Of a stretch of DNA of 23,636 bases, positions 3,538-23,636 are shown in pieces. The stretch lies in IMG/VR virus record IMGVR_UViG_2897328257_000001; one strand, 5' to 3'. The position numbers were made by a program, and so were the translations under genes. The stretch is from a virus. Taxonomy: Duplodnaviria; Heunggongvirae; Uroviricota; Caudoviricetes. Within the stretch, counting starts at the first letter, position 1, and each line of letters begins with the position of its first letter. The notes beneath the pieces are model-generated. The model saw nothing but the letters and a program-made list of their open reading frames with translations. It searched no databases and was not told where the DNA came from.

Positions 3538-3602
3538 AATAAGTCCTCACTATATAAAGATATTCAGTGATGAGATAAATAATCAGTTTATTACGAACGA
3601 TA

Positions 3603-3965
3603 TTAACGACCTGCTGCGCGGAGTTTTCCGTCAGGTTCACCGGCAAGAGTCAGTAATTGTCCCTGGTCTTCCTGCAGAATAGTCAGGCGACCACCGCGAT
3701 TGACATACATCGGCGTTTCGGTGGTGTCTTCTTCGGAAATTTTCCCGCGGTTAGTTGGGCGAACATATGAGAGTTTGTGTTTGATTTTCACACGGTTCTC
3801 ATCAAACGGTTCGATTTCCAGATTGAGTGAGACCTTCCCTTTGGTTTTCGTGTTCATCACACCGGAAGCGACCTCACTGAGAACTGCGCCGATTTTGGTT
3901 TCAAATACGCCGCCGTCCAGCTCCCCGATAAATGCCTGCACATCAGTACTGCGTTCGCTAGCCAT
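3603..3965 (-). CDS. Hypothetical early protein, 120 aa (YfdP-like); start at ATG 3965 (MASERSTDVQ...)
   Basis: AGGAG 7 nt upstream of ATG at 3965; the longer ORF-track N-terminal extension is Cys/Arg/Pro-rich and runs into the GC-rich non-coding region, so is unlikely to be translated. Confidence 0.65.
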   Translation of the reverse strand: MASERSTDVQAFIGELDGGVFETKIGAVLSEVASGVMNTKTKGKVSLNLEIEPFDENRVKIKHKLSYVRPTNRGKISEEDTTETPMYVNRGGRLTILQEDQGQLLTLAGEPDGKLRAAGR

Positions 3966-4014
3966 TTTGCTGCTCCTCATCATATCGACCCTGCAAGGTC
4001 GGTTGGTTTCTCCA

Positions 4015-4101
4015 CAAAACAGAGAAGAACACCTGCGGTGGCAGCCGCCCGGATGGATTGGGTTATGAGCCCGTCGTCCGGTGATGCTCTTCTCTGTTTT
4101 G
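4015..4101. other. Long-range perfect 14-bp inverted repeat (CAAAACAGAGAAGA at 4015-4028 / TCTTCTCTGTTTTG at 4088-4101) enclosing a 59-nt GC-rich segment with nested small hairpins; candidate structured RNA element
   Basis: Seen directly; a 14-bp perfect IR with a 59-nt spacer is very unlikely by chance in 23 kb. Confidence 0.5.
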
Positions 4102-4111
4102 CAAAAAAGGA

Positions 4112-4220
4112 CGGTACCAGCCGGAAGCAAGGGTACAAACTGGTACCGCCAGGACTACACACAGCATAAACTTGTGGTGCCGGGTGCCTCCCGGTGCCTG
4201 GCGAAGGTTGCACACCAGGC
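4112..4220 (+). ncRNA. Candidate structured non-coding RNA region: tandem GC-rich hairpins (CGGTACCAG 4112-4120 / CTGGTACCG 4140-4148; CCGGG-tgcct-CCCGG 4180-4194; GCCTGG 4196-4201 / CCAGGC 4215-4220)
   Basis: Several perfect stems within about 110 nt in a region with no credible ORF; flanking G-T pairs extend the 4180-4194 stem only on the plus strand (G-U in RNA), weakly favouring plus-strand function; no family assignment possible without searches. Confidence 0.35.
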
Positions 4221-4376
4221 GGGTGGGTATCCACAGAAGGTCGACTGTCAGCCTCAACCTTAACCCGCGTGCGCTGAGCCGCATTCACCACAACGCTAAG
4301 GATTCTCTCTGGTTGAAAATACTTAGCTGTTATGTGCCTGCTTTTAGCCACATCAGGCGAGGTGGACCTGGTTATT

Positions 4377-4421
4377 CCCCAACAACAAGGATTCGGTTAA
4401 TCTGGATATCCCCAACAACAA
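4377..4421 (+). repeat. Direct repeat of 12-mer CCCCAACAACAA (4377-4388 and 4410-4421), each preceded by GGTTA, in the leader of the plus-strand ORF
   Basis: Seen directly; CA-rich repeats immediately upstream of the putative start codon. Confidence 0.5.
4399..4417. repeat. Left copy of about 19-bp imperfect inverted repeat (AATCTGGATATCC-c-CAACA) flanking the 4436-4951 ORF
   Basis: 13-bp perfect core AATCTGGATATCC at 4399-4411 is the reverse complement of 4967-4979; flanks also match in inverted orientation (18 of 19). Confidence 0.6.
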
Positions 4422-4435
4422 TAAGAGTATTCAAT

Positions 4436-4951
4436 GTGATCGCTGAATTAACGGCAGCAATGACGGCTATTCGTGAAACAGCCCAGATTGCAAAACTAAT
4501 GAACGAGGCAAAAACTCAAGCTGAAGTAAATGCGGCTATTGGTGAGCTGAACTCAAAGCTTGCGTCTATTCAGCGCGAATGCGTGTCTCTCGTTGAACTG
4601 GTGGGCTCTTATCAAGAAATAAATGCTTCTCTCAAAGCTAAAATTGCAGAATTCGAAAACTTTGAGGCTCAGACGGAAGGCTATATCCTTAACCAACTTG
4701 AGTCGGGTACTTTTGTATACTCGAAGGAGGTAATCGTGAACGGTGGCAGCATAACCATGCATCTTTGCCCAAAATGTTTTGGACAAAAGATAGTATCGAT
4801 ACTTCAACCATTCCCGGTTAGCGAAGATGAGCTTTTTCATAAAAGCAGGTGCCTCCACTGTGAAAATAAGTTTCTGATGAATAAAAATCCGGATTACGTA
4901 TCGCCTCCATCCATTGAGGAGTTGTCCAGAAAACTTAACGGCAATCTGTAG
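4436..4951 (+). CDS. Hypothetical protein, about 171 aa: N-terminal coiled-coil-like helical region plus C-terminal CxxC...CxxC zinc-ribbon-like motif (CPKC ... CLHC); candidate moron, function unknown
   Basis: Longest ORF in an AT-rich segment; putative GTG start at 4436 with AAGAG 8 nt upstream (alternative ATG at 4460); intrinsic terminator 40 nt after stop; oriented opposite to the PL operon; flanked by inverted repeats. Confidence 0.6.
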   Translation: MIAELTAAMTAIRETAQIAKLMNEAKTQAEVNAAIGELNSKLASIQRECVSLVELVGSYQEINASLKAKIAEFENFEAQTEGYILNQLESGTFVYSKEVIVNGGSITMHLCPKCFGQKIVSILQPFPVSEDELFHKSRCLHCENKFLMNKNPDYVSPPSIEELSRKLNGNL

Positions 4952-4960
4952 ATTACTACT

Positions 4961-4979
4961 GTTGTGGATATCCAGATTG
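4961..4979. repeat. Right copy of the about 19-bp inverted repeat (core GGATATCCAGATT at 4967-4979)
   Basis: Reverse complement of 4399-4411 core; contains 10-bp palindrome TGGATATCCA. Confidence 0.6.
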
Positions 4980-4988
4980 TTAAAGAGC
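4976..4988 (-). promoter_or_regulatory. rrn-type boxA-like element on the PL transcript (minus-strand GCTCTTTAACAAT); candidate nutL-type NusB/NusE site
   Basis: 13 of 13 match to the core of the E. coli rrn boxA (TGCTCTTTAACAATTTATCA, from memory), about 105 nt downstream of the predicted PL start, where nutL sits in lambdoid phages. Confidence 0.45.
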
Positions 4989-4990
4989 TA

Positions 4991-5014
4991 AGCGTCCTGT
5001 AGGGCGCTTTTTTG
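4991..5014 (+). terminator. Rho-independent terminator for the plus-strand ORF (AGCGTCC-tgta-GGGCGCT followed by TTTTTT)
   Basis: 7-bp stem (one G-U) plus six T; the stem is weaker on the minus-strand RNA (A-C mismatch) and no U-tract follows in that direction, so it is unidirectional. Confidence 0.7.
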
Positions 5015-5081
5015 TTGCTAACGAATCATCCTGGACTTCATATGCCCCAGGCGGCTACTTCGTGGGCGTCCTGCCTGTTTG

Positions 5082-5120
5082 TTGTTTCTCTTGGGTACAT
5101 TATGTATCTCATAGGTACAT
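5082..5120. promoter_or_regulatory. OL-like operator region: 19-mer ATGTATCTCATAGGTACAT (5102-5120) plus degenerate copy TTGTTTCTCTTGGGTACAT (5082-5100)
   Basis: Shares the GTAC-containing symmetric 19-mer pattern with the OR sites (TTGTACC-N5-GGTACAA; ATGTAC-N7-GTACAT); overlaps the PL -10 and spacer. Confidence 0.5.
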
Positions 5121-5126
5121 TGTCAA
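5099..5126 (-). promoter_or_regulatory. PL-like early leftward promoter: -35 TTGACA (5126-5121), 16-bp spacer, -10 CATAAT (5104-5099)
   Basis: Near-consensus sigma70 hexamers on the minus strand, immediately downstream of the repressor-gene terminator and overlapped by operator-like 19-mers. Confidence 0.65.
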
Positions 5127-5130
5127 GTAT

Positions 5131-5153
5131 AAAAAAACCTGCCGAAGCAGGTT
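5131..5153 (-). terminator. Rho-independent terminator of the repressor transcript (minus-strand RNA AACCUGC-UUCG-GCAGGUU + UUUUUUU)
   Basis: Perfect 7-bp stem, UUCG tetraloop, 7-U tract, 13 nt after the cI-like stop codon. Confidence 0.85.
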
Positions 5154-5165
5154 CATAAACATTGA

Positions 5166-5840
5166 TTAGGCTTTGATTTTGTATCTTCTTGGTTTTCCTG
5201 AGAAAATCACAGTTCCAATTATAGAGCAATTACCGTTGATCTTAATGTAAGGCTCAGGCCAGTTTGGGTTTAACGCTTTGAGATAACGCTGTGTCCCATC
5301 TTCTATCAACCTTTTGAAGGTGGTTTCACCTGTATCGTGCATCAATGCAATAACGTCGTCACCGTGGCAGGCAGGTACTTCAGGATCGACAAAAATCATG
5401 TCTCCCGGGCGGTACTCATCAATCATTGAATCACCTATCACCCGCAAGATATAAGTCATTTCCCCACAGGGTACAGGGCAGGGATACGTTTCTGCTGTGC
5501 TCAAATCAACCTCAGAATATCCAACTTCTTTCCATGCTCCGGCCTGTACCCATGATATGACAGGGACTAATGTGATTTGTTTATTAGTGATTGAAACATC
5601 AGGTTTTTTTGTGATGTTCGTTGTCTGGTGTTCTTGATCGAGCCATCCGACAGGCAGGTCGAAACATTTTTCGATGTGTCGTGCCATGCTGTCACCGATA
5701 TTTTTAGTAGCACCATCTCCCATAAACCTGCTGGTCTGGGTTGGCTCGCGATCAATCATAGTGGCAAAGGAAGAATTCCCTCCAACACCATCTCTCAGTT
5801 TTCTGGCGTTAGACCGCCGGATGTCATGGATTGTTTTCAT
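5166..5840 (-). CDS. CI-like prophage repressor with C-terminal LexA/S24 peptidase (autocleavage) domain, 224 aa
   Basis: C-terminal VIGDSM ... GDMIFVD ... TFKRL (Ser/Lys dyad) typical of S24 repressors; divergent from a cro-like gene across an operator region; no SD before the ATG (possible leaderless PRM transcript as in lambda). Confidence 0.85.
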   Translation of the reverse strand: MKTIHDIRRSNARKLRDGVGGNSSFATMIDREPTQTSRFMGDGATKNIGDSMARHIEKCFDLPVGWLDQEHQTTNITKKPDVSITNKQITLVPVISWVQAGAWKEVGYSEVDLSTAETYPCPVPCGEMTYILRVIGDSMIDEYRPGDMIFVDPEVPACHGDDVIALMHDTGETTFKRLIEDGTQRYLKALNPNWPEPYIKINGNCSIIGTVIFSGKPRRYKIKA

Positions 5841-9198: not shown

Positions 9199-10440
<1,242 letters not shown>

Positions 10441-23052: not shown

Positions 23053-23636
23053 TGGCATTCAGAATGAGTGAACAACCACGGACCATAAAAATTTATAATC
23101 TGCTGGCCGGAACTAATGAATTTATTGGTGAAGGTGACGCATATATTCCGCCTCATACAGGTCTGCCAGCAAACAGTACCGATATTGCACCGCCAGATAT
23201 TCCGGCAGGCTTCGTGGCTGTTTTCAACAGTGATGAGGCATCGTGGCATCTCGTTGAAGACCATCGGGGTAAAACCGTCTATGACGTGGCTTCCGGCGAC
23301 GCGTTATTTATTTCTGAACTCGGCTCATTACCGGAAAATGTCACCTGGTTATCCCCGGAAGGGGAGTTTCAGAAGTGGAACGGCACAACCTGGGTGAAAG
23401 ATGCAGAAGCAGAAAAACTGTTCCGGATCCGGGAGGCGGAAGAAACAAAAAACAGCCTGATGCAGGTAGCCAGTGAGCATATTGCGCCACTTCAGGATGC
23501 TGCAGATCTGGAAATCGCAACGGAGGGAGAAACCTCGTTGCTGGAAGCCTGGAAAAAGTATCGGGTGTTGCTGAACCGTGTTGATACATCAACTGCACCT
23601 GATATTGAGTGGCCTACGAACCCTGTCAGGGAGTAA
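23052..23636 (+). CDS. tfa: Tail fibre assembly protein Tfa, 194 aa
   Basis: [44 protein letters not shown]... matches lambda Tfa family; start overlaps the stf stop. Confidence 0.93.

Follow-up and report, generated by a model that had tools for sequence, protein, structure and literature searches.

The gene at positions 4436-4951 of the window (the whole stretch of 23,636 nucleotides analyzed here, IMG/VR virus record IMGVR_UViG_2897328257_000001) encodes a protein that, judged from its sequence, modeled fold, cysteine motif and genomic context, is a full-length homolog of Rip1 and shares its fold. With ~27% identity, the protein is a new and divergent member, from a distinct enterobacterial subfamily, of a family whose description dates from 2026, and it probably acts as a single-protein abortive-infection defense carried by the prophage. 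An earlier note, prepared from the DNA alone, did not recognize the protein and put it forward as a candidate for a novel function. With the Rip1 family described in 2026 and a structure available as PDB 9oox, this part of the note is not supported. Altogether, the assignment as a defense gene is supported, while that as a novel kind of system is not.

Identification and conservation of the rip1-like gene

Read as an ORF, the plus-strand frame runs from a GTG at 4436 to a TAG at 4951 and comprises 171 aa, and RefSeq holds a CDS of the identical span as the hypothetical protein WP_000559922.1. The source is a lambdoid prophage at tRNA-Arg in E. coli 2012EL-2448, the identity to the window being 100%. 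The gene and its putative Shine-Dalgarno sequence are located as follows:

4436..4951, + strand: rip1-like CDS, 171 aa, GTG start; N-terminal helices and a C-terminal beta domain with CxxC-x24-CxxC
4423..4427, + strand: weak Shine-Dalgarno AAGAG, 8 nt before the GTG; putative function, assigned from the sequence

Since the N-terminus (MIAEL...) is conserved in the family alignment A1, we placed the start at 4436. GTG was found at the same position in ~24 of the 29 homologous loci, the remainder starting with ATG or TTG. Since such a weak start codon is conserved, the translation of a potentially lethal protein may be kept low by selection. The (A/T)GAG block corresponding to the Shine-Dalgarno sequence is kept in most of the leader alignment A2. 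A longer protein was considered and rejected: PhiR49_1 is annotated with a 242-aa CDS that uses an upstream start, and upstream in-frame starts exist in some loci only, with indels or stops elsewhere. As a separate observation, the conserved GTG start (rarely TTG or ATG) of Rip1-like genes spans genera.

Comparison with 16 homologs from many genera (41-93% protein identity) gave Nei-Gojobori dN/dS ratios of 0.13-0.40, and each of the remaining five frames contained 2-19 stops in every one of the 16. By these measures the ORF is a real gene under purifying selection, and the conservation of the frame, which the earlier note had named as a check on its proposal, was confirmed. The 1.3-kb region was recovered at >=80% coverage from 383 of the 5426 complete E. 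coli genomes (~7%), many STEC strains included, and the frame is intact in these 383 genomes. The GC content of the ORF is 0.428 vs 0.554 for the neighboring block at 3980-4365 and 0.526 for the whole window, so that the AT-rich ORF of about 171 aa does lie in a segment compositionally apart from its GC-rich neighbor, as had been noticed before.

Sequence and predicted fold of the protein

The four cysteines form the motif CPKC-x24-CLHC (C111, C114, C139 and C142; a spacing of x22 had been counted before, which is wrong), and all four are invariant in alignment A1. The only meaningful PDB match by phmmer was 9oox_L, "ring interacting pore 1 (Rip1)", with E=2.7e-7; residues 14-150 of the query were aligned with residues 28-159 of the 164 in 9oox_L, including both CxxC pairs. 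A profile of 41 family sequences retrieved the same chain with E=3.7e-20 (profile positions 5-152, 146/164 chain residues), and hhalign of the family profile against JBD30_030 returned a probability of 99.2%. The title of PDB 9oox, released on 2026-02-04, is [quoted passage not shown].

The AF2 model built on the family alignment (pLDDT 91.7) has helices at residues 3-24 and 28-79 and a beta-rich C-terminal half, and the helical N-terminal half that had been read from the sequence is thereby upheld. The C-terminal tail (residues ~150-171) is predicted to contain a helix at 160-167. In the Foldseek search of this model against the PDB, 9oox_L and 9oox_M were the only matches at E<1e-3, both with a probability of 1.00; the TM-score against 9oox was 0.55 when normalized by query length and 0.71 by target length. 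Thus, both the profile search and the structure search that the earlier note had recommended ended in a specific match to Rip1. "Coiled-coil plus zinc-ribbon" remains acceptable as a label for the predicted fold.

By tblastn, the protein shares 27-30% identity with HK446 gp037, HK620 HkaP and a gene of Pseudomonas Mu-like phages (JBD30_030, DMS3, D3112 orf25). The four Cys, V94-Y95 and I122-L123-Q124-P125 are invariant in the protein, HK446 Rip1, HkaP and JBD30_030, and the (S/T)ILQP motif of the Rip1 C-terminal domain is present. The profile search against 1.84 billion cluster representatives found 2757 relatives at E<=1e-3. Among the 150 relatives listed, most are ~145-180 aa long and matched over nearly the full length, a minority being fragments or N-terminally extended. 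A conserved partner gene is absent and the neighbors vary between loci, which indicates a single-gene system in (pro)phages.

With a simple hydrophobic-moment measure, the maximum muH of the N-terminal helices was 0.44, a value reached by 326 of 1000 shuffles. The maximum Kyte-Doolittle mean over 19 residues was 0.85, and there is accordingly no hydrophobic transmembrane segment. Membership in SieB was rejected on the absence of a PF14163 match at E<=1 (a true SieB scores 3e-25) and on this same maximum hydrophobicity. A C4 zinc finger of the DksA/TraR type was likewise rejected: no zf-dksA_traR match was found in Pfam or NCBIfam, the spacing is 24 as opposed to the CxxC-x17-CxxC of that finger, and no structural match was obtained. 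Pfam gave only weak coiled-coil noise, NCBIfam and PADLOC v2 (2023, and thus older than Rip1) gave no match, and PHROGs places the protein in phrog_1244, "unknown function". We found no literature on the orthologue or on phrog_1244, nor any report of expression or phenotype for the gene.

Comparison with Rip1 and other exclusion systems

Rip1 was described by Patel et al., Nature 651:1060 (2026), and we rely on the summary of that work in the review PMC13434031. [quoted passage not shown] The same account gives a cryo-EM structure in which the small-terminase 11-mer ring is encircled by 12 Rip1 monomers, a pore made up of the N-terminal amphipathic helices together with the ring, and release of dye from liposomes by the Rip1-ring complex, and it describes Rip1 homologs as widespread in proteobacterial prophages (PMC13434031). 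A meeting report (PMC12908700) and a Nature Communications paper (PMC13601566) are concordant on Rip1.

The protein and HK446 Rip1 have the same fold, with two long N-terminal helices and a four-Cys beta domain, and similar lengths (171 and 164 aa, respectively). Like HK446 gp037 and Pseudomonas Rip1, the gene is a single, prophage-borne one that is directed against the flanking lytic operon, and, as HK446 rip1 does, it follows the Box A leader within the PL region. The two differ in that identity is ~27%, that the 10-residue N-terminal extension of HK446 Rip1 is missing here, and that a tail of ~20 residues at the C-terminus is absent from HK446 Rip1. Furthermore, the gene lies directly after PL whereas HK446 rip1 lies after N, and the leader is a CCCCAACAAC/TAATCT variant with a 5'/3' inverted repeat while that of HK446 has no inverted repeat.

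SieB of lambda and P22 resembles the gene in its slot, in its orientation convergent with early-left transcription and in its homologous leader. Both would be abortive or exclusion functions expressed from a prophage, a likeness that for the rip1-like gene is drawn from sequence and analogy. The proteins themselves are unrelated, there is no transmembrane segment in the one studied here, and no internal Esc-like start was identified. HK620 HkaP, labeled "putative superinfection exclusion protein", is a member of the Rip1 family with 28% identity; it occupies the sieB slot of a P22-like phage behind a lambda-type leader but belongs to another subfamily. To our knowledge, the annotation of HkaP stems from its position only, and we know of no experiment on it.

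RexAB, Avs1-4 and TerI are comparable in that prophage or host systems abort an infection. Lambda Rex does so by depolarizing the membrane. Avs and TerI sense conserved packaging proteins (PMC13601566). We found no relationship of sequence or fold to RexAB, Avs or TerI; these are two-component systems or large STAND proteins, whereas a Rip1-like system would, by analogy, combine sensor and effector in one small protein.

Position and orientation of the cassette

The gene is flanked by yfdP (3603-3968) and cI (5166-5840), both on the minus strand, the latter coding for a LexA/S24-type repressor. The following features define its surroundings:

4366..5019, no strand: exchangeable cassette, replaced by different genes in phage SfV
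5126..5099, - strand: PL-like early-left promoter, TTGACA-16-CATAAT, 11/12 consensus
5103-5119: operator OL, TGTAC-N7-GTACA, overlapping PL and of the same type as two cI-cro intergenic sites
4101..4316, - strand: tentative structured RNA-like element (STnc100-like), Rfam RF02076, full model length

When the window was compared with SfV by pairwise blastn, homology within the region was confined to 3600-4365 and 5020-5400. The operator pattern TGTAC-N7-GTACA has four matches vs 0.4 expected by chance. The cassette is located immediately downstream of PL. Its gene is on the strand opposite to the PL operon, as the earlier note had stated, and the PL transcript would cross the whole cassette antisense. 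The corresponding arrangement is seen in lambda, in which sieB (34482-35036, + strand) is convergent with N, and HK446 rip1 and HK620 hkaP reside in the same place.

A survey of the neighborhoods of homologs, which had been suggested before, placed them near cI, cro or N in other prophages. The Citrobacter and Klebsiella homologs adjoin cI on the opposite strand. The Salmonella homolog is directed against the PR operon and is flanked by cro and the replication genes; that of Edwardsiella lies within the PL operon, on the downstream side of N. Both neighbors of JBD30_030 are on the other strand; they are annotated as "hypothetical" and are candidate terminase subunits by size only. A crude ORF-based count over 28 loci gave 15 in which both neighbors are on the opposite strand and 12 in which one neighbor is. 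Rip1-like genes thus typically appear to sit antisense within a lytic operon. In Edwardsiella (L013/L014, 3962-5279), two plus-strand genes of 228 and 175 aa with no Pfam match separate the Rip1-like gene from N and may be further morons or defense genes in the same antisense island.

On the yfdP side, the GC-rich block 3980-4365 is conserved in >3000 E. coli genomes, and RefSeq PGAP annotates a "frameshifted hypothetical" pseudogene here. The prophage has no N gene directly after PL. The STnc100-like element within this block matches RF02076 with 39 bits, below the gathering score of 47 (E=4e-7; MFE z = -1.8). It ends in a long stem-loop and a U-run in the PL direction, and these would, tentatively, act as an intrinsic terminator of PL transcripts between the cassette and yfdP. 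Elsewhere in the window, two sRNA families were matched at the Rfam gathering level, isrC at 9259-9381 (+ strand, 150 bits) and IS009 at 23395-23593 (+ strand, 226 bits).

Leader and putative promoter

The ~100 nt upstream of the start are conserved far better than the CDS across loci of which the proteins are 45-75% identical. This leader is collinear with those of lambda and P22 sieB, HK446 rip1 and HK620 hkaP, the common layout being Box A, two C-rich direct repeats and a purine-rich ribosome-binding site:

4335..4365, + strand: "Box A", GCCTG-CTTTTnnCCACnTCAGGCnnnGTGG, conserved left edge of the cassette
4375..4403, + strand: putative sieB-type promoter; -35 TTCCCC (4375-4380), 17-nt spacer, -10 TAATCT (4398-4403)
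4377-4388 and 4410-4421, + strand: direct repeats CCCCAACAACAA, repeat family D7, coinciding with the putative -35 and +1

Box A is near-invariant in 25 homologous leaders and is also present in lambda, P22, HK446, HK620 and SfV. The sequence GCCTGnCTTTTnnCCACnTCAGGCnnnGTGG was located at 34397-34431 of lambda (L232:598-632), in P22 (L233:597-629) and in >120 IMG/VR loci (L112-L231). In 120 IMG/VR stretches, Box A precedes at least about two dozen (about 25-30) unrelated families of small ORFs, among which SieB ranks first, an unannotated 81-aa ORF of SfV second and the Rip1-like family third. The SfV ORF (L003, U82619; 2505-2750, + strand), which begins with MTFDEKELDNAINK... and has no Pfam match, sits right behind Box A.

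In the majority class of Box A cassettes, TATNCT directly after Box A forms an extended -10 promoter (TTnACC-N16-TGgTATACT), and on its 3' side a hairpin with co-varying arms is followed by a Shine-Dalgarno sequence. The -10 adjacent to Box A is degenerate in the rip1-like leader, lambda and P22, and the promoter is located further downstream. We transferred it through alignment A4 from P22 (BK000583), in which the sieB promoter is at L233:633-663 and the RNA start at L233:670; the transcript of the rip1-like gene would then start near 4409 (4408-4410). The putative promoter agrees with the consensus at 6 of 12 positions and was not reported by a consensus scan. Together with the GTG and the weak Shine-Dalgarno sequence, this weak promoter suggests that expression is constitutive and low, as would be fitting for a latent pore-former.

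Lambda, P22 and HK446 carry CCCCTACAG at two places equivalent to those of the direct repeats. The C-rich repeats may be an operator for a regulator or an (ARN)n/CsrA-like RNA motif. The leader was also considered as a structured RNA, and this was rejected: its MFE was weaker than that of shuffles on both strands (z +1.5 and +1.15). RNAalifold of the leader gave -6.7 kcal/mol and no compensatory pairs, and the leader matched no Rfam family.

Inverted repeat and terminator

The cassette further contains an inverted repeat and a transcription terminator:

4399..4424, no strand: inverted repeat I1, left arm, 26 nt, overlapping the putative -10 and +1
4953..4978, no strand: inverted repeat I1, right arm, directly after the stop and within the conserved 3' block GGATATCCAGATTGTTAAAGAGC
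4990..5015, + strand: intrinsic terminator of the rip1-like gene; stem at 4990-5009 with 8 bp (5 GC pairs), 4-nt loop, T-run

The two 26-nt arms are 85% complementary, and the energy of their duplex has a z of -3 to -5 in most members of the subfamily. The cassettes of HK446, lambda and P22 lack the repeat. Two readings of it were rejected. It does not bound an invertible segment, since a flipped synthetic arrangement was found in none of the 5426 complete E. coli genomes at >=80% coverage, nor is it confined to rip1, as the 3' block also follows other cargo with the same leader subtype (L125, L151 and L191). The terminator, which the earlier note had already placed at 4991-5014, was recovered as the stem at 4990-5009 with its T-run, and it is conserved in the homologous loci.

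Proposed function and alternative explanations

We consider it probable that the gene product, a member of the Rip1 family, acts as a single-protein abortive-infection defense of the prophage, the mechanism being carried over from the characterized homologs (the review, the meeting report and the title of the PDB entry). The guess in the earlier note that the gene is a lysogen-expressed exclusion or defense function is well supported by the homology to Rip1, the putative sieB-type promoter and an antisense slot like that of lambda sieB and HK446 rip1. The Rip1-like protein would be present at a low level in the lysogen and harmless alone. Once a superinfecting phage reached late expression, the four-Cys domain would bind around its small-terminase or portal ring, the N-terminal helices of the assembled Rip1 ring would enter the inner membrane as a pore, and the cell would die before the progeny were complete. 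Transcription would proceed from the weak sieB-type promoter, with a start near 4409 and an end at 4990-5015.

The resident prophage encodes its own lambda-type small terminase (NohD) and portal, located at ~17.4-21.7 kb of the window. Self-protection would be achieved when derepression of the prophage drives PL transcription antisense through the gene and leaves less Rip1 during its own lytic growth; a lower level during induction would be expected because the cassette lies directly downstream of PL on the opposite strand. P22 switches off the synthesis of SieB by the antisense RNA sas during its own growth (PMC12197685). With sas acting on sieB in the equivalent slot as the precedent, we infer by analogy that PL read-through would lower Rip1.

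The identity to characterized Rip1 proteins is only 27-30%, and therefore another trigger, or even another outcome, is conceivable. A protein of the Rip1 fold might have diverged toward non-lethal exclusion or interference with packaging, toward binding of a ring without forming a pore, or toward sensing of another oligomer. Besides the 27-30% identity to HK446 Rip1 and the JBD-type protein, this would fit the C-terminal tail of the subfamily (~150-171), which is missing in HK446 Rip1, and the hydrophobic moment of 0.44, which on the simple measure used is attained by 326 of 1000 shuffled sequences. However, the homology extends over the full length, the helical N-terminal half included, the 150 family representatives listed are mostly uniform in length and architecture, and the genomic niche is that of HK446 rip1; we thus regard such a divergence as unlikely. 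The long helical N-terminal half, the C4 motif and the location beside the immunity region bear a superficial resemblance to a zinc-finger regulator that binds DNA or RNA polymerase (DksA/TraR-like or a transcription factor) and serves the prophage's own regulation. That reading is hardly credible against the lack of any zf-dksA_traR or DNA-binding match in Pfam and NCBIfam, even at E<=1, and against a Foldseek result that contains no such structures while the match to Rip1 is specific and strong.

The gene might instead be a passenger, either silent or in decay, that lysogens do not express, its flanks being conserved only through the recent common ancestry of a recombining cassette. The weakness of the putative promoter and the GTG start with a weak Shine-Dalgarno sequence agree with this, as does flanking non-coding DNA too conserved for covariation to be assessed. 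Nevertheless, purifying selection acts on homologs of 41-93% identity from many genera, the frame is intact in the 383 E. coli genomes, and the homologous P22 promoter is annotated with an RNA start in BK000583, all of which makes a mere passenger very improbable. For P22, Ranade & Poteete are said to have reported in 1993 that the prophage expresses sieB. Accordingly, abortive-infection defense by a Rip1-family protein is the reading that we retain.

Implications

On the assignment to the Rip1 family, a putative function is given to the "hypothetical protein" of ~7% of the complete E. coli genomes, as well as of prophages of many Enterobacterales. In lambdoid phages, rip1, sieB and many unknown small genes turn out to be interchangeable cargo behind one promoter box.

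We tentatively raise the possibility that Box A, the sieB-type promoter, the C-rich repeats and the inverted repeat make up a portable expression platform that is active in lysogeny only and silences itself. The platform would be common to Rip1, SieB and about two dozen unrelated families of small ORFs, and early-lytic read-through would turn the cargo off, by antisense RNA or by formation of a long-range duplex, while the prophage itself grows lytically. If this is true, Box A would be a sequence tag for new prophage defense genes, and the platform would explain how a prophage avoids triggering by itself a pore that senses packaging rings. The shared box offers a simple handle for finding further prophage defense genes, and the idea of self-avoidance is testable.
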